A stretch of DNA of 64,000 nucleotides, from the NCBI GenBank assembly GCA_018648805.1, contig JABGQM010000005.1, positions 49,433-113,432 on the forward strand, in the 5' to 3' direction. Position 1 is the first letter of the stretch. Each line of letters begins with the position of its first letter. The notes under the pieces are model-generated. The model had not been told where the DNA came from, made no database searches, and worked only from the letters and a program-made list of their open reading frames with translations. Source of the stretch: Verrucomicrobiota bacterium (GTDB lineage Bacteria; Verrucomicrobiota; Kiritimatiellia; UBA8416; JABMPJ01). Position numbers and translations under genes: made by a program. Below are positions 4,355-60,788 of this stretch, in pieces.

Positions 4355-4370
4355 GCAGGCAGTGATACGT

Positions 4371-29480: not shown

Positions 29481-29504
29481 GCTCTTTCCGACCAGGGGGA
29501 GATT

Positions 29505-29610
29505 CAACGCCCAACAACCAACGCCCAACAACCAACTTCCAAGGGAAGACGAACGTTCTGTGCCTCCCTACTTGGATGTTGGGCGTTGGATGTTGGATGT
29601 TGGAGGTTCA
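29505..29610. repeat. Long imperfect inverted repeat (predicted stem-loop) with nested small palindromes, in the divergent intergenic region
   Basis: Left arm caacgcccaacaaccaacgcccaacaaccaac contains a 15-nt direct repeat. Right arm ggatgttgggcgttggatgttggatgttgg pairs with it at ~21/23 positions. The loop contains cttcc-aag-ggaag and the perfect palindrome gaacgttc. Confidence 0.5.
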
Positions 29611-32254: not shown

Positions 32255-32290
32255 GTTCCGGACCTTGACTTGGCCTTGGGCTGTGACATT

Positions 32291-33187: not shown

Positions 33188-33188
33188 T

Positions 33189-35138: not shown

Positions 35139-35156
35139 GTGTATCATGGGAGATGG

Positions 35157-43690: not shown

Positions 43691-43845
43691 CTCTTGCATT
43701 ATGGGCCAATCCGGCAGCCCCATCAAGGTGTCGTTGTGCCCGTTGTATATCTTGGGCTGGCAATCCCTCGCCTCTCGGGTGATACTTCGCCCGTATTGAA
43801 GTGGGAGTCTGTTGTTGAATCCGTGTGCAGAGCGTATATGAGTAG

Positions 43846-45294: not shown

Positions 45295-45414
45295 ATGAGA
45301 CGCATGCTGCAACTTCTACCCCTGATGCTCTACATGGCTGTTGCCGGAACGATCGCGTTGCAGGGAAATCATGCGTTCGTGGCCCGACAACGTCTGTATG
45401 GAGAGCCTAATTAG
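45295..45414 (+). pseudogene. 5' fragment (39 codons) of an AlgJ/AlgX/DltD-like partner gene, cut by an IS insertion
   Basis: Starts directly after the MBOAT stop, the same arrangement as copy 2 at 50775. MRRMLQLLPLMLYMAVAGTIALQGNHAFVARQRLYGEP is homologous to the copy-2 N-terminus MRRFLQLGPIMVYAAVVASVAIQQYTRRVELHPLDGEP. The frame then runs into the IS and stops. Confidence 0.7.
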
Positions 45415-47299
45415 AGCCCATCTGAAAAGGGTTTCGGACCGGGGTTCTGAGTTCAAAGTTCACGGTTCAAGGTTGCCTCCGGGCGTGACAAGCACCCCCC
45501 TTGAGCATTTTTCGGATGCCGTGCCTCAATGACGCGTGATTTCACCATTTTTTGAGACAGCTCGTCCATGCTGTTCCCTCCACTCCGTACGAATCGGCCA
45601 TTCAGGCCGCTTTATCCAAAGCCTCCCGTCGTCGCTTCCTCATCAGGATGATGCGGCAGCAGTTGTAGGCCAGCACCTTTTCCATCAACTCCGACCGAAC
45701 CGCCTCTATACCCCGGCGACCCAATTCGCCGAATTCAAAGCCGTCCTTTATCGTGAACATCAGAGACTCGACCGCCGAGCGGTCCCGCCGAGCTCCGCGA
45801 TATGTCTCGCTTTCCCACTCATTGAGGCCGGTCAACTTCTTGCCTTTGGCCCCGCTGATGCTGATATCCTCTACGCCCATGTCCAGCACTTCATCGCGCC
45901 CCTTTGCTGAAGCATATCCATCGTCAGTACTGACCAGTGCGGCCGTCACTCCCGTGCGCTTGATGGACTCACGGATTGCCGGCACCAGTTCAATAGAGTC
46001 AGCCGCGTTCCCCTCCGGAACGATCAGGCTGGTGACAAAACCGTTTGCGCTACGAACCAGTTGTGGCCTATATCCGATAACCGGCAAGCGGCTGCCCTTC
46101 TTGATATAGGCAGCCGATCCGTCCGACAGGCTCAGGACCTTCTCCGTCGAGGGAAGCTTCTTGTCGTGAAACACTCGGTCATTGGCGTAGTCGATAACTC
46201 TGTTTCCATCGGCGAGGTCAGCTTTGACCTGATCCAACACTCGCTGTAGAAGCACGCGGCGACTGGGCGGGAGCGTCTCTATCAACAGTTCCTGCTCAAG
46301 GCGGTTGAGTTCCGTTGTCAACGCGTTCGCCGCCTTGCGTCCAAGTCTGAGCAATCCCCGATAACGTTTCTTCAATTTGACGATGGAATTCGCCTTGCCC
46401 GCTACCAGGCAAATCTGAAACACCAGCTTGTCCATCTCTTCGAGCCAGCGAGCAACCCAGCCTTGCCGAAAATTCTCGAACCCGAATACATTCAGTTTCT
46501 GCCCCAGACGATTCGCCCGCATCAGCAGCCCCGTAAGGATCTTCGCATCGGTGGGCCAACTGCTGTTGGCCTTCACCGAGGTACTGTCGATCGTCAGTTT
46601 CAAGAAGTCATCCAGATCTTCTTTGAGAACAAACTTGATCTGTTCATCGAATATCACGTTCAACGTCTTGGCGCTCACCAGATTTATGTTTTCCAGAATC
46701 GTGGTTACGCCCGGCATCGTCAGATCACGGTTATCAAGATAAGCGTATAAGCTCATCGACTCGCGCAGAAAGCGCCTCGATGTCTTTGACGCCAACGAGC
46801 CACCCAGAAATCCGCGGATCATCACAAACAGATAAACCAGCTCCGCCGACATACGTGGCCGCCCCGTGCCTAGCTCCAATTGATCAGCCAGGAGCTCCGC
46901 GTCCGCCACATGAAGGTCGGGTAGATCCAATGTCGTGATCTCAAAGAACTTCCGATCCTCGATTCGAAGCTTCTTCTTGGCGCGTGCATTGGCATCCAGG
47001 TCTTTCTCGATTTCCTCAATGATTTTCGGTGCGAATCGGGACAACGCGTCCACTTCGTCGAGATAATCACGAAAGTCGGTGTCTGGAACCGGCAAAATCA
47101 GGTTGTAGATAGGGGCGGCTTCTGCTAGCTTCTGCTGTGTCGCACATGTTGGCATGCTCAACTCCTTGAGTAGTGTTAAGTTGTTGAACACTAGCATGTT
47201 GCGACACATTCTTGCAAGCCTGAAATCGGATATTGTCAACTTTTTCTTTGCGGTCCTTGCGTTCTTTCGCGGTGAATAAAGACCTTCTCAGATAACGTC
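45414..47299 (-). mobile_element. Insertion sequence (~1.89 kb, IS5/IS1182-superfamily-like) with a TAATTA target-site duplication and imperfect terminal inverted repeats
   Basis: Direct repeat ctaatta/taatta at 45407-45413 and 47299-47305. Left end gagcccatctgaaaagg versus right-end reverse complement gacgttatctgagaagg match at 12/17 positions. Interior GC is lower than the flanks. Removing the element plus one TSD copy restores the interrupted reading frame. Confidence 0.65.
45602..47239 (-). CDS. DDE transposase (IS1182/IS5-like)
   Basis: 545-aa ORF fills the IS. C-terminal RRDRSAVESLMFTIKDGFEFGELGRRGIEAVRSELMEKVLAYNCCRI resembles the conserved C-terminal block of IS5/IS1182-type DDE transposases. 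Confidence 0.6.
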   Translation of the reverse strand: MTISDFRLARMCRNMLVFNNLTLLKELSMPTCATQQKLAEAAPIYNLILPVPDTDFRDYLDEVDALSRFAPKIIEEIEKDLDANARAKKKLRIEDRKFFEITTLDLPDLHVADAELLADQLELGTGRPRMSAELVYLFVMIRGFLGGSLASKTSRRFLRESMSLYAYLDNRDLTMPGVTTILENINLVSAKTLNVIFDEQIKFVLKEDLDDFLKLTIDSTSVKANSSWPTDAKILTGLLMRANRLGQKLNVFGFENFRQGWVARWLEEMDKLVFQICLVAGKANSIVKLKKRYRGLLRLGRKAANALTTELNRLEQELLIETLPPSRRVLLQRVLDQVKADLADGNRVIDYANDRVFHDKKLPSTEKVLSLSDGSAAYIKKGSRLPVIGYRPQLVRSANGFVTSLIVPEGNAADSIELVPAIRESIKRTGVTAALVSTDDGYASAKGRDEVLDMGVEDISISGAKGKKLTGLNEWESETYRGARRDRSAVESLMFTIKDGFEFGELGRRGIEAVRSELMEKVLAYNCCRIILMRKRRREALDKAA

Positions 47300-47348
47300 T
47301 AATTATGCCAAGATCCCTCGCCCCACCGGCAGTGTCACACGGTGGTGG

Positions 47349-48392
47349 ATGGGCACATTCCAGGCCGATTTCGGCCAGTGGTATGCACGGGCATTCGGGT
47401 TTCGTCCGCGGTTGATACGCTGCTACAACGAGGTGATGTACAGGGCGCTTCGCGAATCCGCAGAAACGAAGCGGCAGAAACGGTTCGTGGGTCGTGACGG
47501 GTGGCTCTATTCGTGGGACTATATTGAGCATCTCTGCTTCCCGCGGGCCCTTGAGCAGGGGCTGTTGTCGCATCGTGTCGCTACGCTGGCGAAGGCCCGG
47601 GATATTCTTGCCCAAGAGGGCGTTGCACTCGTTGTGGCTGTGGCTCCCAGCAAAGCCAACGTGCATGCCGATATGCTACCTGCACGTTTCCGTCGCCTTG
47701 CACCGCCCCCCTCCGAATGCTACCAGAGCATGATTAACATGTTTGAAGAGAGCGAAATCCCCTATGTTGATTTCGACGCCCAGTTCATTCGTCATCGGAA
47801 GGAAGACCGTGATTTCATGCCATTTCCGTCGACCGGCATTCACTGGAACTATGTTGTCGCGGGAGATGCGCTGGAGCAGATTATGGGTATGGCCGAGCAG
47901 CAACTCGGTTTTCCTATAAAGCGTAGTGTGCCGAGAGGGGTGATCCAGCGAGAGAGCATTGCCTCCGACCGCGACTTGCTGGATATGCTCAATATCGCCA
48001 CAACTGAGCGCTTCGTCCTGCCGTCACCCTACCCCCGCTACGAGAAATGCGCACCTGAAGGGGCACAAGAGGTGAAGATGTTCTTCGTTGGCGACAGTTT
48101 TGCGAGCCAGTTGATCCGAATTATTGCCGATCAGAGAATGTGTCCGCAACCTACCTTTTGGAGTTACTTCTGCGACGAGAAGGAGGTCGGCTCAACGTAT
48201 AGACGTGCCTTCCGCACATCCCGCATTGATAAGCCCGCAATTGACTGGGATGAGGTCATCGCGGAGCATGATATCATCGTTATTGAGTTCAACGTGGTTT
48301 TCTGCTGGAATCAGCAGGAACACGGGTTCGGGTGGGGGTTTGCTGATAGGCTTGTTGCCGCTATGGAGAGATCCTGCGAGGAGGAACACTGA
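47349..48392 (+). CDS. AlgJ/AlgX/DltD-like (SGNH-like) O-acyltransferase partner, copy 1, 3' portion: N-terminally truncated by the IS insertion and probably inactive
   Basis: Homologous throughout to 50775..52019 (GIHWNYV vs GVHWNHV; KMFFVGDSFASQLIRIIADQ vs RVLLVGDSFAGQIVRIMADQ). Homology extends upstream of the ATG to the IS right end. The signal-anchor segment is left on the other side of the IS. Confidence 0.6.
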   Translation: MGTFQADFGQWYARAFGFRPRLIRCYNEVMYRALRESAETKRQKRFVGRDGWLYSWDYIEHLCFPRALEQGLLSHRVATLAKARDILAQEGVALVVAVAPSKANVHADMLPARFRRLAPPPSECYQSMINMFEESEIPYVDFDAQFIRHRKEDRDFMPFPSTGIHWNYVVAGDALEQIMGMAEQQLGFPIKRSVPRGVIQRESIASDRDLLDMLNIATTERFVLPSPYPRYEKCAPEGAQEVKMFFVGDSFASQLIRIIADQRMCPQPTFWSYFCDEKEVGSTYRRAFRTSRIDKPAIDWDEVIAEHDIIVIEFNVVFCWNQQEHGFGWGFADRLVAAMERSCEEEH

Positions 48393-48396
48393 ACGC

Positions 48397-49170
48397 ATGA
48401 AACTGTTTGTCCAGGAACTGCTGCTCAAGACCTATGCCCTGATCGTACGCACTGGCGTGCTCGAGACTCGGGCTGGCCGCCGGCTCTTCGCGGGGGCTTA
48501 TAACCTCTACAAACTCCTGCTTGAGGCGTGTGAGATACGGTTCTTGCGTGCCTACGTGAAGCCCGGTGAGGTCGTTGTGGATGTTGGCGCCAACGTCGGG
48601 TTCTTCACGCGGCGTTTTGCCCAGTGGGTCAGTGATGGCGGGTTCGTCATTGCGATTGAGCCCGAGGAAACCAACTTCCGGAATCTGCTGCGCAATCTGG
48701 ATCGGTATCATCTTGCGGCCGCCGTCAGGCCGTTCCAGGGCGTTGCGGCTGAAGCGCCCGGCACGCTCAAGCTCGAGATCAATCCGATCCACCCGGCCGA
48801 CCACAAGATCGGTGCCGAAGGCGTCGATGTGACCGCCTACACGGTTGACGGCCTGGTTCGGCAGGAGGGTGTCAGCCGCGTCAGCCTGATGAAAATCGAT
48901 GTGCAAGGCGCCGAAGAACGTGTCCTGCGCGGCGCCGGCGAGATGATCGCGCGTGATCACCCCGTCATCTTCATCGAGATGGATGACACCGGGCTGCGCA
49001 AGATGGACTCCAGCGCCCAACGCGTGATCGATCTGCTCACAGAAGCCAACTACGAGATCCGCCACTTCAGCAAGGCCGGTAAACCCGAGCTGATCTCAAT
49101 CGAGACGGCACTCGGCCTCTGCGCCGATGGCCGCTATACCGACCTGCTGTTTGTGCCTGTTGTTGCGTAG
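48397..49170 (+). CDS. FkbM family methyltransferase
   Basis: ATG at 48397 with GAGGAG upstream. VVDVGANVGFFTRRFA (SAM motif I) and GFVIAIEPEETNFRNL are typical FkbM-family features. Confidence 0.65.
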   Translation: MKLFVQELLLKTYALIVRTGVLETRAGRRLFAGAYNLYKLLLEACEIRFLRAYVKPGEVVVDVGANVGFFTRRFAQWVSDGGFVIAIEPEETNFRNLLRNLDRYHLAAAVRPFQGVAAEAPGTLKLEINPIHPADHKIGAEGVDVTAYTVDGLVRQEGVSRVSLMKIDVQGAEERVLRGAGEMIARDHPVIFIEMDDTGLRKMDSSAQRVIDLLTEANYEIRHFSKAGKPELISIETALGLCADGRYTDLLFVPVVA

Positions 49171-49337: not shown

Positions 49338-50774
49338 TTGGTCTTTAGTTCTCTACTCTTTCTGTTGGTGTTCCTTCCCGTCTTTCTTGGGATTTACTAC
49401 GCCAGCCCCAGGTCCTGGCGCAATGCCGTAGCGGTAGCAGGCAGTCTGCTCTTCTACGCGTGGGGTGCTCCGCGATTCATAGTGGCCCTGCTGGGCTCCT
49501 GCCTGGTTGACTATGTCTGTACACGCAAGATGGGATCCGACCCCCAACGCACGCGTGCTCGTATTGTTCTTGCGATTGCCTTCAATGTGAGCGTTCTCGT
49601 CTTCTTTAAATACTCGAACTTCATGGTGCAGCAGTGCAATGGGCTCCTTGGCTCGATATCATCTGGTGGTGTGATTCCCTGGAAGACCATCGCGCTGCCC
49701 ATCGGGATCTCTTTCTTCACATTCCAGAAGATCAGCTATCTGGTGGATGTGCGGCGAGAGCGCATGGAGCCGGCCCGCACCTTTCTGGATTACCTGCTCT
49801 ATGTCTGTCTGTTTCCTCAACTGATAGCAGGACCCATCGTGCGGTACCACGATGTGGCCCGTCAGATCACGAGTCGTGTTCACTCCACACTGCTGGTCTC
49901 TGATGGGTTCCGCCGGTTCGTGATCGGGCTGGCCAAGAAAGTGCTGATTGCCAACCATGTGGGGCTGATTGCTGACGCGACGTTCAACGGATCGCCCAGT
50001 CATCTGTCCTGTGGCCAGGCGTGGATCGGGGTCATCGCCTATAGCTTTCAGATCTACTTTGACTTCTCTGGTTACTCCGACATGGCTATCGGTTTGGGTC
50101 GGCTGATGGGGTTTCGGTTTCTCGAGAACTTCAATAGGCCTTACCTCGCGATCGGTTTTACCGATTTCTGGCGTCGATGGCATATCTCGCTTTCCAACTG
50201 GATGCGGGAGTATCTGTATCTACCCCTCGGGGGAAATCGCGTATCACACTTTGTGCAGATTCGGAATCTCTGGATTGTGTTTCTGGTGTCTGGACTCTGG
50301 CATGGCGCCAGTTGGAATTTTGTGGCGTGGGGTGCCTATCATGGTCTCTTCCTCTCCTTGGAAAAGGGGCGTAGGGTACAATCGCTTCTCACGGTTCTGC
50401 CCGCCTGGGTTCGCAGGTCTGTGACGTTCCTGCTGATATCCATTGGATGGTGTTTCTTTCGTGCCGGTACGTTCGAGGGGGCTCTGGCAATGATCTCACG
50501 GTTGTTCACCTTAGGTCCGGCTACAGCGGCGATCGTTCCCATACGAAGCTTGGCGTATTTGCTGAGCCCTAGAATCGCAGTGGCCCTGCTGGTCGCCGCC
50601 ATACTCAGTTTTTGGCCGGAATCCGGGCGTAGCCATCGGAAGGTGGTGCCGGGTTCTGGGGTGTGGACAGTGGACCATCTGTTCTCTGCCGCCGGGACGA
50701 TCGTGCTGTTGCTGGCCTGTGTCGGGGCTCTGACGGTCCAAGATTTTAACCCCTTCATCTACTTCAGGTTCTAG
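49338..50774 (+). CDS. MBOAT family membrane-bound O-acyltransferase (AlgI/DltB-like), copy 2
   Basis: Paralog of 43846..45294 with the same motifs: FFTFQKISYLVDVRRE, YFDFSGYSDMAIGLGRLMGF, WRRWHISLSNWMREYLYLPLGGNR. N-terminus MVFSSLLFLLVFLPVFLGIYY. Confidence 0.75.
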   Translation: MVFSSLLFLLVFLPVFLGIYYASPRSWRNAVAVAGSLLFYAWGAPRFIVALLGSCLVDYVCTRKMGSDPQRTRARIVLAIAFNVSVLVFFKYSNFMVQQCNGLLGSISSGGVIPWKTIALPIGISFFTFQKISYLVDVRRERMEPARTFLDYLLYVCLFPQLIAGPIVRYHDVARQITSRVHSTLLVSDGFRRFVIGLAKKVLIANHVGLIADATFNGSPSHLSCGQAWIGVIAYSFQIYFDFSGYSDMAIGLGRLMGFRFLENFNRPYLAIGFTDFWRRWHISLSNWMREYLYLPLGGNRVSHFVQIRNLWIVFLVSGLWHGASWNFVAWGAYHGLFLSLEKGRRVQSLLTVLPAWVRRSVTFLLISIGWCFFRAGTFEGALAMISRLFTLGPATAAIVPIRSLAYLLSPRIAVALLVAAILSFWPESGRSHRKVVPGSGVWTVDHLFSAAGTIVLLLACVGALTVQDFNPFIYFRF

Positions 50775-52019
50775 ATGCGTCGCTTCCTACAACTGGGCCC
50801 GATCATGGTTTACGCGGCAGTGGTGGCCTCTGTGGCCATTCAGCAGTACACTCGTCGTGTGGAGCTCCATCCGCTCGATGGGGAACCGTTGCCCGAAAAT
50901 ATCCCGGCGCCCGTCTGTGACCTGCGGCATTGGTTTGATGGAACGCTGCAGGCAGAGCTGTCATCCTGGTACCCTAAGATTCTCGGGTTCAGGCCGTTGA
51001 TCATTCGCCTCTACAATGAGGTCTTGTATTCTGCGTTGCATGATGCGAACAGCGGGTCCCGCTCGAAGGTGGTTGTGGGAAGGGATGAAGAACTCTTCAC
51101 ATGGTATTTCGTCTCCCGTAGCATCTACCATGCAACGCTGAACGAGGCGCTCCTCGAAGCGCGCGTGGAGAAGCTGAAGCGAGTACAGAGCATTCTGCAT
51201 GATCGGGGCATTGCCCTTGTGGTGGTGATCACGCCGAGCAAGGCGAGTGTTTACCATGATAAACTCCCGTATCGTTTCTCTCGCGGGTGGACGTCGCAAC
51301 CGCCTCCCCTCTATGCGCGAATGCGCTCGTTACTTGAGGACGCCGGGGTCCGGTACTTGGATTTCGATAGAGAGTTTCTACGCAAACGCACAATGGATGA
51401 CCAGTTTGGGCCTTTCCCGAAGACCGGCGTTCACTGGAACCATGTGTCCGCCGGATATGCGTTGGAGCGTATCTTCAAAGAGGGGGAAGCACAGCTTGGG
51501 GTGGACATTGAGCGCCGTGTTCCCGTGGGAGTGGCCTCGCGCCGCACCATTGATACGGACCGCGACGCTCTGAGTATGCTCAATCTGCTATCAGATTCGC
51601 GGCGGGCCCTGCCGTCTCCGTATCCGCTGTATCGCCCCCATGGAGTTGATGGTGCTTTACGGGCCCGCGTGCTTCTCGTAGGCGATAGTTTTGCGGGGCA
51701 GATTGTCAGGATCATGGCCGATCAGGATATGTGTGACTATGTGACGTACTGGTGGTACTTCCGGTCAGAAGCCACAGTGGGATCCACGGTTACCCCCGCG
51801 TTTGCCCGAAAGCCGATTGCCAAGGATTCCATTGACTGGAACCAGCTGCTGGACGACCACAACCTGGTCGTCATCGAGTTCAACAAGGCCTTTTGCAAGT
51901 CCCAGCAGGTTCAGGGGTTCGGCTGGGGGTTTGCGGATGCGCTTGCCGATGCCTTCCCCGCTCCGTCCGAGACATCGCCCGACGGTATACGGTCTCAAGT
52001 CGATCCCTCACAACCGTAG
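50775..52019 (+). CDS. AlgJ/AlgX/DltD-like (SGNH-like) O-acyltransferase partner, copy 2 (intact, with N-terminal signal anchor)
   Basis: ATG follows immediately after the MBOAT stop. N-terminal hydrophobic segment MVYAAVVASVAIQQY. Motifs GVHWNHVSAGY and LLVGDSFAGQIV. Confidence 0.55.
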   Translation: MRRFLQLGPIMVYAAVVASVAIQQYTRRVELHPLDGEPLPENIPAPVCDLRHWFDGTLQAELSSWYPKILGFRPLIIRLYNEVLYSALHDANSGSRSKVVVGRDEELFTWYFVSRSIYHATLNEALLEARVEKLKRVQSILHDRGIALVVVITPSKASVYHDKLPYRFSRGWTSQPPPLYARMRSLLEDAGVRYLDFDREFLRKRTMDDQFGPFPKTGVHWNHVSAGYALERIFKEGEAQLGVDIERRVPVGVASRRTIDTDRDALSMLNLLSDSRRALPSPYPLYRPHGVDGALRARVLLVGDSFAGQIVRIMADQDMCDYVTYWWYFRSEATVGSTVTPAFARKPIAKDSIDWNQLLDDHNLVVIEFNKAFCKSQQVQGFGWGFADALADAFPAPSETSPDGIRSQVDPSQP

Positions 52020-53058
52020 GGCCGAACTGCTCATGCATGTTTCGGCTTGCCGTGTGTCCGAGCCGCTGCTTCAGGTCTGCGTCATCCAAGAGCCGCGTGA
52101 CGGCCTCAGCCAGAGCGGAGGTGTCCCCCGGAGGCACTAGAAGACCTGTCTGCTCGTGCTGCACGACTTCGGGAATGGCGCCAATGCGCGAGGCGATGAT
52201 GGGCTTGCTGAACGAGGCGGCTACGAATGGGATGCTGCTCTGGCTGGCTTCAAGATAGGGCGCCAGGGCAATCGAACATCGCTCAAACAGCGCCGCGCTC
52301 TCGGCATCCGAGACAAACCGGTTGATCACCTCGATGCGGTCACCCAGTTGCGCTATCGGGGCGGCGTAGGGGGTCAGGTCGCCTTGTCCGGCCAGGATAA
52401 GCTTGGCATCGGGCTGGTGTTCGAGAATATCGGGCATGGCTTCCAGAATCGTGCGGATGCCCTTGTACTCCCGCAGGCGGCCGTACAGGAGAAGGGTGTT
52501 GGGCTCCTCGGCAATGCCCGTACGCCACGGCTCGAAGACATCATGAAAGGCCATGGGTGTCACGCACACGCGCGCCGGTGCCAAGTGCCACTTGGCGAGT
52601 GCCAATTCGCGTAGTTTTTCGCTGTGCACGGTAATGATGCGGCTGTGTTTGAGCAGTGGGGCCAGCTTCATGCGGTCGAACGGACGCGGCTCACCCAGGT
52701 GCGGGTCGATGTCATGAATGGTCGATACCATGGGGTAACGGCGTGCCAGGGCACCCAGGAAAAGCCCATAGAGAATGTGGCCGCTGTTGACGTGAATGAT
52801 ATCGGGCTGCCAGTGGTGAATGTCGCGTACGATACGGTGTACCAGCATGGGTGCCGCCAGGTAGCGCAGCAGTTCACCGAGTGTGGCCCACTGCGGCACA
52901 CCGTAAGTGAAGGATCGACTGGCGCTGGACAAATGCTCGTCTGAAACGCCTCTTGGAAGGAAACATGCGACCTCATGGCGCGGTCGCAAGGCGTGCGCCA
53001 GGCTGCTGGCATAGTGCGCCATTGCACCCACATGTAGACTGAGAATAGCTACCCGCAT
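51880..53058 (-). CDS. Glycosyltransferase family 4 (group 1)
   Basis: MRVAILSLHVGAMAHYASSLAHALRPRHEV and a typical GT4 C-terminal half (...LLYGRLREYKGIRTILEAM...EVINRFVSDAE...). The 3' end overlaps the convergent gene by ~140 nt. Confidence 0.65.
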   Translation of the reverse strand: MRVAILSLHVGAMAHYASSLAHALRPRHEVACFLPRGVSDEHLSSASRSFTYGVPQWATLGELLRYLAAPMLVHRIVRDIHHWQPDIIHVNSGHILYGLFLGALARRYPMVSTIHDIDPHLGEPRPFDRMKLAPLLKHSRIITVHSEKLRELALAKWHLAPARVCVTPMAFHDVFEPWRTGIAEEPNTLLLYGRLREYKGIRTILEAMPDILEHQPDAKLILAGQGDLTPYAAPIAQLGDRIEVINRFVSDAESAALFERCSIALAPYLEASQSSIPFVAASFSKPIIASRIGAIPEVVQHEQTGLLVPPGDTSALAEAVTRLLDDADLKQRLGHTASRNMHEQFGPTVVRDRLETVYRRAMSRTERGRHRQAHPQTPSRTPEPAGTCKRPC

Positions 53059-54288
53059 TCAGTTCTCCCGTATAGCACTCACGTGGGCCGCGTAACGCGA
53101 CCAGATGGAGGCCCAGTCATAGGCCTCGGCCGCAACACGGCAGGCGGCGCCCAGGGCCCGCCGCCGCTCTGGTGCATCGATCAGTGCTTCGAGGGCTGCG
53201 CGCAGGGCCTCCGGTTGGGCCGGCGGCACCAGCATTTCGGCCAGCTCGCCCTGTAGCACCTGCGGAATATCACCCACGGGGGTGGTCAGGCAGGGCAGAC
53301 CCGAGGCCATTGCCTCCATCAAGGCCAGTGGCAACCCCTCCTGCTGCGTTGGCAACACAAAGATGTCGGCTGCGCGCAGTTCGGGGGCCAGCACCTCCTC
53401 GTCGGCCAGCCCTTTGAGTGTCATGGTGCCCTGCAGCCCGGCCTTATCAATCTGCTCGCGTAAGACCGATTCGTACGGCCCGGATCCGTAGACATCTGCC
53501 TGCAGGCGTGCCCGCGTCCCGGCCGGCATACCCGCAATGGCTTCAATCAAGTGCTGAATGCCCTTGCGCTCGATCAATTGGGCCACCGTGATCAGCCGGA
53601 TGGTGCTGTCATCGCGGGCGTCGCCCTCTGTGGCGGGGTGAAATACGCGCGTATCGACCCCGTTCGGAATCACGCCGAACTCGCGTGAGGGTAGCGTCTG
53701 TTTCGCCAGATCGGCCAGCGGGGAGCTTACGGCGCTGACGTGGGCCGCGCGGCGCCAGACATAGCGTGCCACCGCCCGCATGATCGGATGCAGCAGAGCG
53801 AAACGGCCCGGCTGGTAGCCCGGCACATCCGAGCCCTGTAGCACGGTGATGAAGGGGGTGCCGTAGCGCCGCGACCAAGCCGCCCCCAGCAAGCCGGCCG
53901 GCATGGTGAAGACCGCTATGATGGCTTGCGGGTTCAGCTTGTCTTCCAGCGCGGCCATGTGGCGGCGTCCGGACCGGTAAAACGCGAGAAGCTCCAACAC
54001 CGAGTGGCGCGTCCAGTTCTTTTTGGGGCAAGGGATGCGGTGGACATCGACCCCGTTGCGCTGCTCCTCGGCCGGCAGGCGCCCCCCGATGTCGGAAGTC
54101 AGCACGCTGACAGCGTACTCGCCCGAGGCTGCGGCCTGCTCGGCAATGGCTGCCGCCGCACGCTCAGCTCCACCGTAGTAGGGGGGGTAGCCCTGGCAGA
54201 TTACGAGCAGGCGCGTCTGTGCCTCGCGCGGCTGTGTTGACGCCGCCGGCTCAGGCGTCGTCGGTTGCATCTTCTTCTCGGCGCTCAT
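53059..54288 (-). CDS. Glycosyltransferase family 4 (group 1)
   Basis: LLVICQGYPPYYGGAERAAAAIAE (GT4 N-terminal motif) and a C-terminal EGLPLALMEAMASGLPCLTTPVGDIPQVL (E-x7-E-like region). Confidence 0.7.
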   Translation of the reverse strand: MSAEKKMQPTTPEPAASTQPREAQTRLLVICQGYPPYYGGAERAAAAIAEQAAASGEYAVSVLTSDIGGRLPAEEQRNGVDVHRIPCPKKNWTRHSVLELLAFYRSGRRHMAALEDKLNPQAIIAVFTMPAGLLGAAWSRRYGTPFITVLQGSDVPGYQPGRFALLHPIMRAVARYVWRRAAHVSAVSSPLADLAKQTLPSREFGVIPNGVDTRVFHPATEGDARDDSTIRLITVAQLIERKGIQHLIEAIAGMPAGTRARLQADVYGSGPYESVLREQIDKAGLQGTMTLKGLADEEVLAPELRAADIFVLPTQQEGLPLALMEAMASGLPCLTTPVGDIPQVLQGELAEMLVPPAQPEALRAALEALIDAPERRRALGAACRVAAEAYDWASIWSRYAAHVSAIREN

Positions 54289-55195
54289 GATCCTCCCAGA
54301 ACAGGCTGGTCTGGGAACTCATTTCCTTGCGGAGCGAAGCAATCTGGTCCCCGAGCAAACCAAAGTGAAAGATGATGATACCGGCCAGGAGCGATAGGAT
54401 CGCGCCACCTTCGATATGCATGCCCCATTTCGCAAAGATGTAGGCCTGGTAGAGCACGCCGATAGCCATCAGGCCTATGGCCGGATACCCGAAGGCGCGC
54501 ATCGGGTCGAACAGCATCATCAGGCGCAAAGAAAGTAAGAGTGTCTTCATGCCGTCATACACGATGCGCACCGTGCTTGACCCCTTACGCGGGTGCACGA
54601 TCACTGGTACGAAGATTGTGGAGAAACGGCTGCGCATACCGAACATAAGCGAGGTGGTTGAGAACGAAAAGCCATCCGGCAACAGATCCAGCATCTGCAT
54701 ATAGATGCGTCGCCGCCCACCGCGCAGGCCGCAGTTGATATCCGGAATCTTGCGCGCGGCCAGGAAGTTGCAGACCCAATGTAGAATCCATTTTCCCGGT
54801 CGCCGCACCATCGGTACCCCGGCATGCTTGGCGCGCTCGCCGAAGACCATCTCGTGGTCTTTGAGCGCGTCGATCAAGGCCGGCAGGTTGCAGGGATCAT
54901 GCTGGCCGTCGCTGTCGAGAAAGATAACGTTCAGCGCCCGCGTGGCGCGGATGCCAGTCTTGAGCGATGCCCCGTAGCCGTGGTTGGAGGGATGCCGGAT
55001 CACGCGGATGCGGTCACCGAACCCCTGCAGCACTTCGCTGGACCCATCCTCCGAGGCATCATCCACCGCGATCACATCACAGGGCTGACCCGCCACGGCA
55101 TCCAGTACCCCCTGAATCACATCCCCGACGGCCTCGGCTTCATTGTAGACCGGGATAATAATGGCAAACTGGTTTGAATCCTTGGGTGTGGTCAA
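54251..55195 (-). CDS. GT2 polyprenyl-phosphate glycosyltransferase (GtrB/ArnC/DPM1-like) with two C-terminal TM helices
   Basis: FAIIIPVYNEAEAVGDVIQGV...VIAVDDASEDGS...IFLDSDGQHDP. C-terminal TM region LLLSLRLMMLF...ILSLLAGIIIFHFGLLGDQI. Confidence 0.7.
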   Translation of the reverse strand: MTTPKDSNQFAIIIPVYNEAEAVGDVIQGVLDAVAGQPCDVIAVDDASEDGSSEVLQGFGDRIRVIRHPSNHGYGASLKTGIRATRALNVIFLDSDGQHDPCNLPALIDALKDHEMVFGERAKHAGVPMVRRPGKWILHWVCNFLAARKIPDINCGLRGGRRRIYMQMLDLLPDGFSFSTTSLMFGMRSRFSTIFVPVIVHPRKGSSTVRIVYDGMKTLLLSLRLMMLFDPMRAFGYPAIGLMAIGVLYQAYIFAKWGMHIEGGAILSLLAGIIIFHFGLLGDQIASLRKEMSSQTSLFWEDHERREEDATDDA

Positions 55196-55289: not shown

Positions 55290-57926
55290 TTAGCCTGCCG
55301 GTGCTCTTTCAAGTTCTTTCCGCAGGGCGGCGGCCACCGTCGCAACATACGCGTCATGCAGGATGGTCGTGTGTTCACCGGGGATGTCGACATAATCGAT
55401 CCCTGCGCAGAGCCGGCGCCATTCGTGCTTCCACGCCTCCCGCATCCCCTCGCCGGATGATCTGAAGTAGGTGACCCGGCCGGGATAACGGCGGGCAATA
55501 TAGCGCCAACGCGCCTGCATATGTGCCGTGCGAATGCGTTCGTGTGGGTCAATGGCCATCAGTGGGTGGGGGGCGTTGCACGGACCTGTTGCCAGTGGCT
55601 CCCGATTCTCGCCCCGGGTCTTGCGAAACAGGTGCCTGTATGCGTGGGCGGCGACCCGTAAGGTGCCGTAGTAGCACTGTTTCATGTTGCGTATGGGGTC
55701 TGCCTGGGGTCGCTTGTTGCGCCCCTTGAGTGTATATCCGGGCGGCATGCGGGAGTCCAGCACCGCCAGCAGGTGTATCGGCATCTCCGCGGCATGAAGC
55801 TGTTGCGCCATTTCGAAGGCCACGACACCTCCCAGGCAGCGTCCTCCAATATAGTAGGGCCCGTGCGGCTGAACGTCGCGCATGGCCCGGACGTAGTGGG
55901 CCGCCATGTCTTCGATCCGATTCTGCGGCGGTAACCGTCCGTCGATACCTGCAGGTTCAAATCCGTAGACAGGGCGGTCGCACCCCAGGTGCAGGGCCAA
56001 TGATCTGAACCCCAGTGTGCTGCTGGCGGCAGGCGGAACCAGGAAGAGGGGCGGCAACGATCCCTGTGGCTGAAGGACCACCAGGCCATCGGATGCCGCC
56101 GGTGCCTCCTTCGATCGAATGATGTCTGCCTGGGCCGCGACGGTAGGTGCATGAATCAACGTGGTCATGGGCAGTTGCATGCCGAATACGTGCTCGATGG
56201 CGGCAAGGATCTGTACGGCATGCAGCGAGTCGCCGCCGAGATCGAAGAAATGGTCATCTGGACCGACGTATGGAATGCCCAACGTCTGCTTCCACATCTC
56301 GGAGAGGTCGTGTTCCACACTGCCTTTGCCGATGACCGTGGACCTGGTTGTGGCTGGCGGTTCGGGAAGATCCGGAAGCGCATTTCGATCAATCTTGCCC
56401 GTCGACGTCAGCGGCAGCGCCGCGACCGCGATGAAGCGGGAGGGCACCATGTATTCCGGGAACCGCTCGTGCAGCAGGTGCCGCAGATCGGTTGTTAGCA
56501 GGTGTTCTGGTTCATTCTCAACCAGGTAGGCGACCAGGCAGAGGTCGCCATTCTGGTCCTTGCGGGGCACGACCGCCACATGGTCGATCGATGCTGTATT
56601 TCTGATGGCTGTTTCGACCGCGCCTGTTTCAACGCGGAACCCGCGAATCTTGACCTGGTCATCCTGTCGTCCCGTGTATACCAGGCAGCCATCTTTACGT
56701 TGTCGTCCCCTGTCGCCTGTGAAATAGGTTCGCGCATTAGCCCCCGTGGCGGCGGGGCGGAATTTGGCGCGCGTCAGTTCTGGCCGGTTCCAGTAGCCCG
56801 GCGAAAGAAAACGGCTTTCCACGACGAACTCGCCGACGGTGCCCGGCGGCACGATCGCCCCATTGCTGTCCCGGACGGTGACGACCTTGCCTCGATGTGC
56901 ATACCCCACCGGGAGGTCGCTGCCCTTCAGCACGTCCTGGCCATGCAGAGCATACTGCGCATAGCTCAGTGTCTCGGTGGCGCCAATGTTGTTGATGAAG
57001 GTCGATGTTACAGGGAAGTGCTGTCGCCACACCTCTATGTCGCGCGTGGTGACCCTTTCGCCTCCCAGCCAGCACAAGCGCACGTCCGGGAACTGCTTGC
57101 CACGGGGGAGCGTGGCCGCCAGGAGGCGGAATAGGGTGGGTATACATCGCAGAAAGGTAATGCGCGCTTCAAGTAGCCATGCCGCCAGGTGGGCCAGTCC
57201 ATCCTGTGCCACATCGTAGGGATGTATCGATGCCCCGCACAGCAGGGCGCACAAGATCGTCCCCTGTGCGGAGATCGAGCCTGGTGTATGTAGCATCGAG
57301 AGGCGGTCATCGGCAGAGAGGGCCAGCCGGTCCTGCAAACAACGAACCGATTGCAGATAGGTGCGGTGACTATGAATCACGCCCTTGGGGGTGCCCGATG
57401 AACCCGATGTATAGATGATGATGGCCGGGTCGTCGGGGGCAATGGAGCGGTCCGGGTCTGGGAGGGCATCGGTCTTTGCGATGTCATCAATATTGATAAC
57501 CCGTGTCTGTGGGGATGTCACTCGCGCGGCGGTCATCATCGTTCTTGAGTTGCAGAGCAGGACTCGCGCACTGACATCGTTCAGAATCCGCATCAGGGCG
57601 GTGTCGGGGTCTGTCGGGGTGACGGGCACGGAAATCTTGCCGGCCTTCCATATTCCCCATGCGGCACAAACATAATCACAGCCAAGAGGCAGCAGTGCGA
57701 CGACCGGGTGGCGACCGGCATCGGTCTCGGCAAGAAGGGCGCCGGCAATCCTGTTGGCCTCTCCGTTGAGCTCGGCGTAGCTCAGTGTGCGTTCGCCGTC
57801 CCGAACGGCCAGCCGGTGCGGATGCCGCCGTACCTGCTCCTCAAACGGCTGCACGAACGAGGATCCTGTTTCGCGGTCCTCGACGGTCTCGATCTGGTGG
57901 GGCCAATCTGATCTGGCAGCAGTCAT
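55290..57926 (-). CDS. Stand-alone NRPS-like tridomain protein: adenylation (AMP-binding) domain, carrier (PCP/T) domain, and a thioesterase/alpha-beta hydrolase domain with Cys in the nucleophile position
   Basis: A-domain core motifs LSYAELNGEANRIA, IIYTSGSSGTPKGV, YTGDRGRQRKDGCLVYTGRQDDQVKIRGFRVE. Carrier motif FFDLGGDSLHAVQI. TE-like PLFLVPPAASSTLGFRSLALHL...YYIGGRCLGGVVAFEMA, where Cys replaces the usual Ser in the G-x-S-x-G position. Confidence 0.75.
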   Translation of the reverse strand: MTAARSDWPHQIETVEDRETGSSFVQPFEEQVRRHPHRLAVRDGERTLSYAELNGEANRIAGALLAETDAGRHPVVALLPLGCDYVCAAWGIWKAGKISVPVTPTDPDTALMRILNDVSARVLLCNSRTMMTAARVTSPQTRVINIDDIAKTDALPDPDRSIAPDDPAIIIYTSGSSGTPKGVIHSHRTYLQSVRCLQDRLALSADDRLSMLHTPGSISAQGTILCALLCGASIHPYDVAQDGLAHLAAWLLEARITFLRCIPTLFRLLAATLPRGKQFPDVRLCWLGGERVTTRDIEVWRQHFPVTSTFINNIGATETLSYAQYALHGQDVLKGSDLPVGYAHRGKVVTVRDSNGAIVPPGTVGEFVVESRFLSPGYWNRPELTRAKFRPAATGANARTYFTGDRGRQRKDGCLVYTGRQDDQVKIRGFRVETGAVETAIRNTASIDHVAVVPRKDQNGDLCLVAYLVENEPEHLLTTDLRHLLHERFPEYMVPSRFIAVAALPLTSTGKIDRNALPDLPEPPATTRSTVIGKGSVEHDLSEMWKQTLGIPYVGPDDHFFDLGGDSLHAVQILAAIEHVFGMQLPMTTLIHAPTVAAQADIIRSKEAPAASDGLVVLQPQGSLPPLFLVPPAASSTLGFRSLALHLGCDRPVYGFEPAGIDGRLPPQNRIEDMAAHYVRAMRDVQPHGPYYIGGRCLGGVVAFEMAQQLHAAEMPIHLLAVLDSRMPPGYTLKGRNKRPQADPIRNMKQCYYGTLRVAAHAYRHLFRKTRGENREPLATGPCNAPHPLMAIDPHERIRTAHMQARWRYIARRYPGRVTYFRSSGEGMREAWKHEWRRLCAGIDYVDIPGEHTTILHDAYVATVAAALRKELERAPAG

Positions 57927-58030: not shown

Positions 58031-60682
58031 ATGGTTGTGATTGGACTCATCGCGGCATTGTGGGCCGTTATTCTGGCAGCGGTCGCACGCATTGTGGCCG
58101 GCAACTTTGATGCCGCTGTGATGCGCAAGGGCTATGCAGGCGTCGTGTTGTTGCTTCTGGCGCTGGCATCCATCGCCTATTTTCGGCCGCATGAAGACGT
58201 CTTTGGCGGACAGGACCAGGGCGCTTACATCAATGCCGCCGTGACCTTCGCCCGTACCAAAACGTTGAAGCACGTCGATCCGCTCTTGGACGTAGTGCCC
58301 GAAGCACAACGTACCGGTTTCCACTACCGCAGTTCCCTCAGCGGGTTACCCACTTTGGCACATGTTTTGCGCCTTGAAGCCGTTGACTCCGCTAGACAGG
58401 TGCCGTGGTTTCAGCCCTCCTTTTCCTTGATATTGGCCCTGCCCGCCCTGTGCGGCTGGAGCGATGGGGTACTCTATGTCTCGCCACTATTAACACTCTT
58501 GATTGCCCTGGCCCTGTGGGGGCTGGCCCATCAACTTTGGGCGGGCCGTAGTGCGGGACTCATTGCGGCGGCCACGTTTCTTGCGTCGCCACTGCTTCTC
58601 TGGCATGGCCGTAATGCGCGCGCTGAACTGCCCGCTCTGCTGTTTTTGGTCTGTGGCGCTTCGTTGCTGCTACAGGCCATCCGGCCGAGGCCAGGGCGTC
58701 GGTCGTGGGACTGGGCACTTGCCGGGCTCTGTTTTGGCCTGGCCCCACTGTCGCATATTACCGCGGCCCCCATGTCGCTCTTGGCGGGACTGGTCCTGCT
58801 CGTGTTGATTCGCCGGGGACACAGGCATGGCTGGTTGGCTCTCGCGTTCCTGGTTGCGATGGCGCTGCTCTTTGTGGGGCAAACCCTCTGGATCACCGAC
58901 CCCTACGGCTTGGCCGGGGCCTTGCGTGTGTGTGGGCAGCATAGTGGACTATGGATAGTGTTGTTGGGCGCCATTACGGTCGGGGCTGCTATGCTTGCAT
59001 TGCCTCTACCCCTTGCAGTGGCCGTTGCGCGGCGGACGTGGCTTGTTCCGGCCTTACAGTGGGGGCTGGCCATTGTCGGGGTGGGGTGGTTGTTCGCGGT
59101 CGCTCGGATCGGCCCCAATCGTCTGTTCGGTGCCGGGAGCGCCTTGCGCATTGTCGGATTGGCAGACCTGGCTGGGTTTGTCGAAATCGCCGGTCCTGCA
59201 GCAGCGATCTGCATGTTGCTTGGGTGGTTGGTCTTGGTGTTGGGGTCGGGGGCCGGGTGGGCTCGGCGTGTAGCTGTTGCCGTCATTCTACTGCCCTGTG
59301 CCACGCTCGGTGGCGTAATATCCTCCGGCCTGCTCTACGGATCACGCTACATGCTGATTGCCATCGCGCCACTCGCCGCGCTCAGCTTGGTAGGGCTTTT
59401 CATGTGGCTGCAGTCGTGGTCGTGCCGCTGTCGCTGGTGTCGCTGGTGTTTAACCGGTTTCGTCGCACTGGCCTGTCTGTGGGGGGTGTATGCCCAGCGC
59501 CCCCTGCTATTCGAACGCGACTATCCCGGACTCAACGCCTTCATCCGGCGTGTTGCCGCGCCCATGCGAGGGGGTCTGGTTTTGTGCGAGTACTCACGCG
59601 TGGCGGCCCCGCTGAAATACTTGGCCGGCCTCGATCTGTTGGGCATCGACAGCGAGACTCAGCGTGACTACACAGCCATTGAGATTGGGTGGGCCGGTAT
59701 TATGGTCGCCCATCCGGGTCGCGCGGCCTACTTTGTAACCCCCTATGCCACCCCGCCGCTCAGCGAGCGGTTCACGTTCGAGCCCAAGGGCATCTTTACC
59801 TATAGCGGAGCACGCCTCCGCTCGGGTGCGAGCGAGGTCGATGCTGCGAGTTCTCCGCTGACCAAACAGCTCCACGTCTACCGTATGCACCCACCCACGC
59901 CGCCGGCCAATCCGACGCAACCCTTTACGCGCGCTATCCCGCCCATCAGCAGCATGGGGCTGCGCCGCTTCCATGATAACCGCATGGTCGGCCCCAATCA
60001 GCGCGGCATTGTCGTGCCCGTCAGGCCTGCCCCCCCGCTGCGCATCGGGGCGCTCAGCTCTCCCTCGGCCCCGGTCCGGATTGGGCTCGTACTCGTTAGC
60101 GATACCGCACCGTGTCTTACCGATGCGACGGCAGCCCCCATTCAGGTCCTTCCGCTGCAGCCCCCCTGGTGGCTGGCCGTGGCAGATCAGACCACCTTGG
60201 CGGAGGGGCTGAGCTCTGCCCCGGCCGGTCCGGCCGTGCGGCTGGTAGATGTCTGGAAACTGGGTGCCACACCGCAGCCGCTGACCAACTGGGCGGATGG
60301 ACTCGAACTTCAGGCGGTCGATCTGCCCTCCACCCCAGGCCGTTGGATGGCACAGGGAGCCGAGATTCTTCTCCCGGAACGGGCGTCTGGCACCCTTTTT
60401 GCTTTGTTAATCAAAGTGCGTTCCGCTGATGATGCCGTGGATCCACGTTTGCGGCTGACGGTTGCAGGAGGGGGCTCCCGTGTTTTTGCACTGGATCCCG
60501 CTAGCGGAGCGATGAGGTGGTATTTTGTCAACAGTGAGAATGGAAAGGAATCCGACCTGGATTACAGATGGGTGCGTATGGCCATGCGTCCGCCTTACCG
60601 GGTGCGGATCGGACGCTCCATGGGCGCACGCGTCGGTGTGCTGGCGGCGGCCTGCTCACTGCCCTTGACAACAGAGCCATGA
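58031..60682 (+). CDS. Large polytopic membrane protein (putative GT-C-like) with a C-terminal soluble domain
   Basis: N-terminus MVVIGLIAALWAVILAAVARIV. More than 12 TM helices across ~500 aa, then a ~350-aa soluble region. Contains an unusual CRCRWCRWC run. Confidence 0.45.
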   Translation: MVVIGLIAALWAVILAAVARIVAGNFDAAVMRKGYAGVVLLLLALASIAYFRPHEDVFGGQDQGAYINAAVTFARTKTLKHVDPLLDVVPEAQRTGFHYRSSLSGLPTLAHVLRLEAVDSARQVPWFQPSFSLILALPALCGWSDGVLYVSPLLTLLIALALWGLAHQLWAGRSAGLIAAATFLASPLLLWHGRNARAELPALLFLVCGASLLLQAIRPRPGRRSWDWALAGLCFGLAPLSHITAAPMSLLAGLVLLVLIRRGHRHGWLALAFLVAMALLFVGQTLWITDPYGLAGALRVCGQHSGLWIVLLGAITVGAAMLALPLPLAVAVARRTWLVPALQWGLAIVGVGWLFAVARIGPNRLFGAGSALRIVGLADLAGFVEIAGPAAAICMLLGWLVLVLGSGAGWARRVAVAVILLPCATLGGVISSGLLYGSRYMLIAIAPLAALSLVGLFMWLQSWSCRCRWCRWCLTGFVALACLWGVYAQRPLLFERDYPGLNAFIRRVAAPMRGGLVLCEYSRVAAPLKYLAGLDLLGIDSETQRDYTAIEIGWAGIMVAHPGRAAYFVTPYATPPLSERFTFEPKGIFTYSGARLRSGASEVDAASSPLTKQLHVYRMHPPTPPANPTQPFTRAIPPISSMGLRRFHDNRMVGPNQRGIVVPVRPAPPLRIGALSSPSAPVRIGLVLVSDTAPCLTDATAAPIQVLPLQPPWWLAVADQTTLAEGLSSAPAGPAVRLVDVWKLGATPQPLTNWADGLELQAVDLPSTPGRWMAQGAEILLPERASGTLFALLIKVRSADDAVDPRLRLTVAGGGSRVFALDPASGAMRWYFVNSENGKESDLDYRWVRMAMRPPYRVRIGRSMGARVGVLAAACSLPLTTEP

Positions 60683-60788
60683 ATTGGTATAGTGGATCCC
60701 CAAATAGCAGGTAGGTAGCCTGATACCCCGTGGTCATCCCGACGACGGGGAACTTGAACCAGTAAACACTAATATGGAGAATCATAAC

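Follow-up and report, generated by a model that had tools for sequence, protein, structure and literature searches.

The Dlt pathway joins an adenylating enzyme, a phosphopantetheine carrier, an MBOAT (membrane-bound O-acyltransferase) and an SGNH-type periplasmic partner. Its MBOAT, DltB, is without the FxYxxF motif, which is supplied in trans by DltX, and it takes D-Ala from the carrier DltC (PMC12148441). In AlgI, WssH and other MBOATs the FxYxxF motif is instead fused to the protein on two additional helices, there is no carrier protein and acyl-CoA is used; in PatA the Tyr of this C-terminal hexapeptide is auto-acetylated from acetyl-CoA and then hands the group to the SGNH partner (PMC12148441). 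We have analyzed here a 64,000-nucleotide window of a Verrucomicrobiota genome (contig JABGQM010000005.1 of assembly GCA_018648805.1) in which, as in the Dlt pathway, an adenylating enzyme, a phosphopantetheine carrier, MBOATs and SGNH-type periplasmic partners are found in one envelope-glycan island. The adenylating and carrier functions belong to a single 878-aa protein in which adenylation (A), peptidyl carrier protein (PCP) and thioesterase (TE) domains are fused, and which we refer to as the A-PCP-TE protein (gene at 55290..57926 of the window, minus strand). An initial annotation of this DNA took these parts to be the four components of a Dlt-like relay, with the carrier feeding the MBOATs, a proposal that our analysis argues against. 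The A-PCP-TE gene is the first gene of a minus-strand glycosyltransferase (GT) operon, and the neighboring MBOAT pairs look like ordinary independent acylation cassettes of the AlgI/AlgJ or PatA/PatB type; this is a slightly unusual arrangement and not a new system. The reading that we favor, with somewhat less than even confidence, is that the A-PCP-TE protein is a self-contained cytoplasmic enzyme resembling non-ribosomal peptide synthetases (NRPSs), which would load an acid and, through a TE domain with a Cys nucleophile, transfer that acid to a sugar intermediate made by the GT enzymes of its operon.

The A-PCP-TE protein is specified by a full-length open reading frame (ORF) and contains four Pfam domains, AMP-binding (residues 28-379, 2e-61), AMP-binding_C (437-511), PP-binding (541-602, 4e-15) and Thioesterase (626-857, 8e-22). 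With its catalytic motifs intact, it is the single adenylation/carrier/thioesterase fusion that the initial annotation had described. The NRPS-type A domain, as delimited by Pfam, NCBIfam and alignments, spans residues 28-517 (56376..57845, minus strand), the PCP domain residues 541-602 (56121..56306, minus strand) and the type I TE domain residues 626-857 (55356..56051, minus strand). The core motifs of the A domain are all present, among them A3 (YTSGSSGTPKG, residue 172), A7 (YFTGD) and A8 (GRQDDQVKIRGFRVE); motif A5 is the variant NNIGATE, and the A10 lysine is Lys511, the equivalent of Lys517. The phosphopantetheine-site serine of the carrier is also intact, Ser567 (codon 56226-56228) lying within the conserved-Ser motif FFDLGGDSL. 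The NCBIfam matches of the carrier domain are to NRPS PCPs and generic acyl carrier proteins (ACPs), with no DltC model at E <= 0.01. In the TE domain, Cys697 (codon 55836-55838) lies in GGRCLGG, Asp724 follows it at +27 and His852 is found in PGEH. The 878-aa protein has no hydrophobic segments, and so would be soluble. No phosphopantetheinyl transferase was recognized in the window.

Comparison of model scores places the A domain with the NRPS enzymes. The NRPS adenylation model TIGR01733 gives 287 bits, just below its cut-off of 317, and whole-NRPS NCBIfam models give up to 300 bits. By comparison, DltA models score 198-205 bits (198.5 for TIGR01734, against a cut-off of 559.85) and fatty-acid ligase models about 195 bits or less; none of the NCBIfam equivalog cut-offs is reached by the A-PCP-TE protein. 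A fatty-acyl-AMP ligase is not favored, being outscored by the NRPS models in this NCBIfam comparison, of which the insertion specific to such ligases formed no part. The exosortase-A-associated ligase/ACP/hydrolase set was likewise rejected as an identity for the protein, since TIGR03098 gives 194 bits, far short of its cut-off of 592, and no exosortase-associated hydrolase model is matched by the TE region.

The substrate pocket was read from two alignments, one made with HMMER to LgrA and the other with MAFFT to a fragment of GrsA, whose numbering as used here agrees with the published code DAWTIAAICK. The Stachelhaus code obtained is I/S-S/A-G-R-W-G-N-S-Y-K, with Arg at position 278. Asp235 (GrsA numbering), the residue that binds the alpha-amino group of the substrate, is absent in both the HMMER and the MAFFT alignments, with Ser or Ile there instead. 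The absence of this residue suggests that the substrate is probably a carboxylic acid other than a standard alpha-amino acid, and the pocket would possibly suit an anionic or polar one. In A4 the sequence is HTPGSISAQGTILCALL, with the core HTPGSISAQG, and neither A4 nor A5 differs in the two close relatives discussed below. In the same alignment, canonical condensation-adenylation-thiolation-thioesterase (C-A-T-TE) matches return textbook codes, for example DILQLGLIWK, DFWNIGMVHK and DAFWLGGTFK. Most of the stand-alone A-T-TE matches have no Asp235, and have His, Arg or Lys at 239, 278 or 299. The specificity code of the A domain matches none that we know, and we know of no characterized member of the stand-alone A-T-TE set without Asp235.

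The TE domain has a Cys in place of the Ser nucleophile, as the initial annotation had pointed out. When the domain is aligned with solved TEs, Cys697 takes the place of the catalytic Ser in 7crn and of the Cys in the Acinetobacter baumannii protein AB3403 (4zxh, GGWCFGG), and His852 aligns with the PGDH motif of AB3403. An AlphaFold model of residues 610-878 has a mean pLDDT of 85 (core > 90), its only weak part being the lid at about model residues 121-180. The model places Cys697 at the nucleophile elbow, where a strand gives way to a helix, with Asp724 following beta-6 and His852 following the last strand, a prediction that puts the nucleophile-Asp-His triad at the canonical type I TE positions. 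Fold searches with the model match NRPS, polyketide synthase (PKS) and fatty-acid synthase (FAS) TEs with E values of 1e-14 to 1e-16, and the best PDB matches are 7crn, AB3403, Vlm2, FAS-TE, NocB and Pks13-TE (TM-scores 0.61-0.71, with 0.67-0.71 for the top ones, AB3403 and Pks13-TE among them). Pks13, at about 20% sequence identity, is both the top NCBIfam match of the TE region and the protein with the highest fold-search TM-scores.

Solved TEs with a Cys nucleophile are limited to SulM, ObiF1 and AB3403; the Asp is relocated to 'position II' in the lactam- and lactone-forming Cys-TEs, and SulM also has a Gln-Cys-Asn motif, whereas AB3403 keeps the Asp after beta-6 (PMC11298585). Because Asp724 is positioned after beta-6 and is not relocated, the TE domain of the A-PCP-TE protein is of the AB3403 kind. 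A beta-lactone- or beta-lactam-forming Cys-TE like those of ObiF1 and SulM was rejected because of the placement of Asp724 at position I and the motif Arg-Cys-Leu. AB3403 resembles the A-PCP-TE protein in being a single-module NRPS with a Cys TE (GGWCFGG vs GGRCLGG) and an Asp after beta-6 (PMC11298585). It differs, however, in having a condensation domain and in a genomic setting with no GT operon. AB3403 is also said to have a canonical amino-acid code. A Cys nucleophile is not rare among the TE-bearing relatives of the A-PCP-TE protein that were examined, about a third of which have GxCxG.

The genomic position of the A-PCP-TE gene, at the head of its operon, suggests a link to sugar chemistry. 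The next gene, 94 nt downstream and with no terminator-like site on the minus strand between the two, encodes a GT2 enzyme like ArnC, GtrB and DPM synthase (54251..55195, minus strand; Pfam, alignment). Two further glycosyltransferase genes assigned by Pfam follow, GT4b (53059..54288, minus strand), which overlaps the end of GT2, and GT4a (51880..53058, minus strand), which abuts GT4b and closes the operon. Over its residues 9-296, GT2 aligns with ArnC, the cyanobacterial GtrB-like protein sll0501 and DPM synthase, and on this basis it is probably a polyprenyl-phosphate sugar transferase. A divergent gene (58031..60682, plus strand) encodes a membrane protein of 883 aa in which 11 hydrophobic segments were counted; it matches PMT (GT-C-like) weakly and is a possible periplasmic glycosyltransferase using a polyprenyl-phosphate-linked sugar. 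Weak PMT, PMT_2 or PTPS_related matches are found in four proteins of 800-910 aa in the window (12877-15612, 20186-22816, 24885-27296 and this one at 58031-60682). From their sequences the four look like paralogous periplasmic glycosyltransferases of the GT-C type, which would fit an ArnC/GtrB-like GT2.

Only two close relatives of the A-PCP-TE protein were found among 5.8 billion proteins, P0002 (57% identity) and P0003 (60% identity, from a Verrucomicrobia metagenome-assembled genome), both encoded on contigs of about 4 kb. In each case GT2 lies directly downstream (78% identical at the P0002 locus and 85% at the P0003 locus), and at the P0003 locus, L085, GT2 is followed by the beginning of a 69%-identical GT4 that matches GT4b. 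The upstream flanks of both relatives are unlike the window. P0002 retains all the motifs, including GRCLG. P0003 (L085 659-3028) has an in-frame deletion of about 88 residues in which the nucleophile elbow and the Asp are gone and the C-terminal part with the His is kept; decay, an artefact of assembly or a variant that works independently of the TE could each account for this. The identical A-PCP-TE protein recurs in independent metagenome assemblies, and scans of genome and metagenome contigs with the A-PCP-TE protein otherwise returned only relatives of 30-39% identity.

Members of the GT2 family itself are numerous in Verrucomicrobia and Kiritimatiellae. At loci where GT2 is 67-68% identical to that of the window, the GT2-GT4 core is kept (with the second GT4 also present in L166 and L167) and a large membrane protein is divergently encoded in each, but there is no A-PCP-TE or MBOAT gene within 10 kb. 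Since these operons lack it, the A-PCP-TE gene is a lineage-specific accessory at the head of a conserved glycan operon.

Beyond these close relatives, we collected about 165 loci of distant relatives, a Nostoc-dominated mix of canonical C-A-T-TE NRPSs and stand-alone proteins, and clustering them gave no informative conserved neighbor. A tblastn search found no MBOAT or ALGX genes in 169 loci, 165 of them encoding A-T-TE relatives. The stand-alone A-T-TE set (loci L001-L165; proteins P0004-P0049) is drawn from Cyanobacteria, Acidobacteriota, Chloroflexota and Verrucomicrobiota, and at one of these loci, L088, two stand-alone copies lie in tandem. By Pfam, the neighbors of the best stand-alone relatives include GT4, a polysaccharide deacetylase, a GDPD/HAD pair, a tandem A-T-TE gene and housekeeping genes; a general glycan link for the A-T-TE relatives was rejected, as these contexts are too heterogeneous.

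The MBOAT and SGNH genes form a separate module. The initial annotation recorded two MBOAT + SGNH pairs 3-11 kb from the A-PCP-TE gene; both are indeed present, but the ALGX gene of the first pair is split by an insertion sequence (IS) of ISNCY type. MBOAT1 (482 aa; 43846..45294, plus strand; Pfam MBOAT 2e-33) is followed directly after its stop codon by a 5' fragment of the first ALGX gene, 39 codons long and encoding a signal-anchor helix (45295..45414, plus strand). The interrupting IS carries an ISNCY-family transposase gene (45602..47239, minus strand; NCBIfam), and beyond it lies the 3' remainder of this AlgJ/AlgX-like SGNH gene, without the membrane anchor (47310..48392, plus strand; ORF 47349-48392, Pfam ALGX 7e-16). 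The IS boundaries show no clear terminal inverted repeats or target duplication. The same IS insertion in the first ALGX gene, or a contig break there, is seen in other metagenome assemblies of the organism. An FkbM-family methyltransferase gene (48397..49170, plus strand) stands between the two pairs. The second pair consists of MBOAT2 (478 aa; 49338..50774, plus strand; Pfam MBOAT 4e-31) and ALGX2, an intact AlgJ/AlgX-like SGNH partner of 414 aa (50775..52019, plus strand; Pfam ALGX 3e-16), which begins one base after the MBOAT2 stop codon and has an N-terminal anchor helix at residues 4-22. The 3' ends of ALGX2 and GT4a converge and overlap by 140 nt (51880-52019), both tails being outside the conserved parts. 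The two MBOATs are 67% identical to each other and their ALGX partners 47%.

In both MBOATs the catalytic His is found in WHGASW, which aligns with FWHGITW of DltB; the alignment with DltB (6bug) is confined to residues 122-341 of the window MBOAT. Both proteins continue into two extra C-terminal transmembrane helices (404-422 and 444-462 in MBOAT2) and end in NPFIYFRF. An FxYxxF end is present in 143 of the 150 nearest MBOAT2 representatives clustered at 50%, and is exactly FIYFRF in 88 of those. A fused FxYxxF on two extra helices gives the window MBOATs the acyl-CoA-type architecture (PMC12148441). Acting in this way, the module would pass an acyl group, probably acetyl, from acyl-CoA to the C-terminal Tyr of FIYFRF and on to the periplasmic SGNH partner. 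The ALGX partners match Pfam ALGX (PF16822) and no NCBIfam model. Only three relatives of ALGX2 were found, at 24-48% identity, marking a rare and divergent branch in which His220-Trp221 and Asp304-Ser305 of ALGX2 are invariant. There is no DltX-like or carrier-like small ORF in the region 43.0-52.1 kb.

Related MBOAT genes occur in autonomous cassettes. The closest MBOAT relative with long flanks (L178, on a 2.4-Mb contig) lies in a cassette of two genes, MBOAT and ALGX, and within 10 kb there is neither an AMP-binding nor a PP-binding gene. A 3.7 kb contig (L179) carries the same pair, and on a contig of 3.8 kb (L177) the MBOAT gene follows housekeeping genes and the contig ends just past it. 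A distant relative of ALGX2 (24% identity) is encoded at L175, where the gene for a 409-aa MBOAT is paired with one for ALGX and adenylation or carrier genes are absent. These three shorter contigs are consistent with carrier-free cassettes as far as they extend. The MBOAT/ALGX genes of the window have a GC content of 55-58% and the IS transposase gene 54%, compared with 62% for the A-PCP-TE gene and 61-67% for most neighbors; this lower GC content is a weak hint that the cassette was acquired separately.

The window module is therefore closest to the AlgI/AlgJ(/AlgX/AlgF), PatA/PatB and WssH/WssI systems, with which it shares an MBOAT of about 480 aa with a catalytic His, two extra helices and a terminal FIYFRF, an anchored ALGX-family partner directly after the MBOAT, and close relatives that are autonomous two-gene cassettes. 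It differs from them in that the cassette is duplicated, one copy is IS-interrupted, the ALGX branch is rare and no AlgF-like protein was recognized. From these features the pairs look like ordinary independent acylation cassettes of this type rather than partners of the A-PCP-TE protein, and the view in the initial annotation that they depart from the AlgI/AlgJ layout was mistaken.

In the reading that we favor, the A domain would adenylate a carboxylic acid, probably not a standard alpha-amino acid, which would be loaded as a thioester onto the phosphopantetheine arm of Ser567, pass to Cys697 of the protein's own TE domain and be released to a nucleophile. Given that the gene comes first in an operon that also encodes an ArnC/GtrB-like GT2 and two GT4s, the acceptor would most likely be a hydroxyl (or an amine) on a GT-made sugar intermediate at the cytoplasmic face, before export. 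The general idea of the initial annotation, that a carboxylic acid is placed on a glycan, survives here as the best guess, while the Dlt-like route to that glycan is not supported. The observations from which this reading starts are the integrity of the domains and of their catalytic residues, the operon layout and the conserved gene order, together with the MBOAT architecture next door.

Two described systems offer precedents. The type I TE of Pks13 transfers mycolate to trehalose, its acyltransferase reaction on a sugar hydroxyl taking place in the cytoplasm, ahead of export (PMC11649247). Pks13 differs in that it uses Ser, is part of a polyketide synthase and handles very long lipids. The Vibrio cholerae O1 locus, with ABC-transporter export, carries tetronate genes, and tetronate N-acylates perosamine; here (wbeK-O, VC0248-VC0252) dedicated genes supply an unusual acid for a glycan exported by a Wzm/Wzt-type system, and WbeL carries a putative ATP-binding domain (PMC3441752). 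The V. cholerae system has no fused thioesterase and its target is an amino sugar. Its ligase and carrier are reportedly separate proteins.

Several points weigh against the favored reading. The evidence from synteny consists of two related contigs of about 4 kb only, and co-transcription of the A-PCP-TE and GT genes is read from their spacing only. The deletion in P0003 implies either that the TE domain is dispensable or that this copy is decaying. The contexts of the stand-alone A-T-TE relatives at 30-39% identity are varied and mostly non-glycan, so the A-T-TE architecture does not by itself imply glycan chemistry. No amino-sugar synthesis gene was recognized in the window, which leaves an N-acylation target without support. 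The class of the substrate, transfer rather than hydrolysis, and the glycan acceptor are all things that we infer.

If the protein were instead part of a Dlt-like relay, an acyl- or aminoacyl-PCP would dock on the cytoplasmic face of MBOAT1 or MBOAT2, and the group would cross the membrane to ALGX and esterify the exported glycan. All four types of component do lie within 14 kb of one glycan island, and DltB is the sole NCBIfam model matched by the MBOATs; the scores with this model (TIGR04091), however, are 162 and 157 bits against a cut-off of 375. None of the equivalog cut-offs for DltA, DltB and DltD is reached, the PCP matches no DltC model, and the SGNH partners belong to ALGX rather than DltD. 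CoA and a carrier bear the same phosphopantetheine arm in chemical terms, and a PatA-type tunnel could in principle accept either, but DltB is without the shuttle motif and needs DltX, whereas the window MBOATs carry the fused two-helix FIYFRF arrangement of the acyl-CoA class, an FxYxxF architecture common to nearly all of their nearest representatives. P0003 has lost its TE nucleophile yet keeps A-PCP, as would fit an off-loading partner acting in trans. The window carrier lies inside a protein of 878 aa and is fused to an intact in-cis TE, a complete off-loading domain for which a shuttle like the small, free-standing DltC would have no need. The genes are moreover on opposite strands and in different operons, the plus-strand MBOAT/ALGX genes converging on the minus-strand GT operon, and it is the linkage of A-PCP-TE to GT2 that is conserved, whereas the related cassette at L178 does without adenylation or carrier genes nearby and the shorter contigs concur as far as they reach. 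The absence of Asp235 from the A domain, the disruption of one MBOAT/ALGX pair by the IS and the difference in GC content also argue against a relay. For these reasons the Dlt-like reading is unsupported, and we consider coupling of the PCP to the MBOATs unlikely. Similarly improbable is a version in which the carrier would feed MBOATs of AlgI/PatA type with a non-acetyl, non-amino acyl group destined for an exported sulfated, pyruvylated polysaccharide, which if true would be the first carrier-protein-dependent MBOAT relay outside the Dlt family.

The main rival to transfer onto a sugar intermediate is that the A-PCP-TE protein is a free-standing small-molecule synthetase merely sited in the island, which would load a non-amino acid, such as an alpha-keto or aryl acid, that its TE would dimerize, cyclize or hydrolyze to a diffusible metabolite. 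This we regard as doubtful, while giving it real weight. The A-T-TE architecture and a code without Asp235 are the hallmark of such enzymes, and the fungal quinone and furanone synthetases share both the three-domain order and the pocket without Asp235 (PMC9047271, for the fungal class). These fungal enzymes differ, however, in condensing two aryl alpha-keto acids and in sitting in metabolite clusters, whereas the window gene is in a GT operon. RalA is said to be a bacterial stand-alone enzyme of the same A-T-TE kind. Among the more distant relatives, the nearest are stand-alone A-T-TE proteins whose contexts are unrelated and have nothing to do with glycans, and the absence of the gene from otherwise similar GT operons is as expected for a mobile accessory gene. 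Against this, the same-strand position at the head of the GT operon has been kept in three lineages that have diverged to 57-60% identity, there are no tailoring, transport or regulatory genes of a metabolite cluster nearby, and every recognizable neighbor is glycan-related. The glycosyltransferase nature of the conserved neighbors, and the fact that no oxygenase, halogenase or lipid-synthesis gene was recognized beside the A-PCP-TE gene, also make it improbable that the acceptor is a non-glycan component of the envelope (a membrane lipid, a polyprenyl carrier or a protein), or that the TE only hydrolyzes an acid modified while tethered. There is precedent for the latter in A-T proteins such as SyrB1 and CmaA, on which the substrate stays tethered while tailoring enzymes act on it. 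A Cys nucleophile is also found in AB3403, a solved NRPS module of unknown product (PMC11298585). The in-frame TE deletion of P0003 and the lineage-specific distribution of the gene could be taken to mean that it is a decaying or non-functional insertion. We think this very improbable: the window copy is full-length with every catalytic motif intact, the identical protein is found in independent metagenome assemblies, and the retention of all motifs, GRCLG included, by P0002 at 57% identity argues for purifying selection.

The wider island contains the exporter and modification genes that the initial annotation had listed, and we could assign ORFs to each, although the matches for Wzm and for one of the sulfotransferases are weak. 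A Wzt/TagH-type ATPase is encoded at 33129-34388 and a multi-transmembrane protein with weak Wzm/KpsM matches at 32270-33187; sulfotransferases are encoded at 27293-27997 and, with a weak match, at 37508-38302, and pyruvyl transferases at 17808-18995 and 40562-41953. An FrhB/FdhB-like (F420 hydrogenase beta-type) iron-sulfur protein is encoded amid the sulfotransferase and glycan genes (28092-29531); its family is often seen alongside polysaccharide pyruvyl transferases. The ORF at 4362-12773 encodes 2803 aa with MBG, FG-GAP and fibronectin type III repeats, presumably a giant surface protein, and a second FG-GAP protein is encoded at 60774-62543. Several island ORFs of 240-720 aa, including those at 34407-37492, 41958-43726 and 22813-24972, have no Pfam or NCBIfam match at E <= 0.001.

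For the annotation of such islands, the C-terminal FxYxxF provides a quick means to separate MBOATs of the acyl-CoA type from those of the DltB type, and checking for it guards against applying a 'Dlt-like' label on account of a mere nearby adenylating enzyme. An NRPS-like A-PCP-TE protein with a Cys nucleophile that acts directly as a glycan acyltransferase would be new, albeit less radical than carrier-fed MBOATs. If the favored reading is true, a bacterial polysaccharide would receive an unusual acid by an NRPS-type route independent of acyl-CoA pools, with one enzyme activating, carrying and transferring the acid; neither of the known membrane relays, MBOAT-SGNH and AT3-SGNH, works by this logic. 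The widespread, uncharacterized stand-alone A-T-TE proteins without Asp235 would then also gain a first lead to their function.

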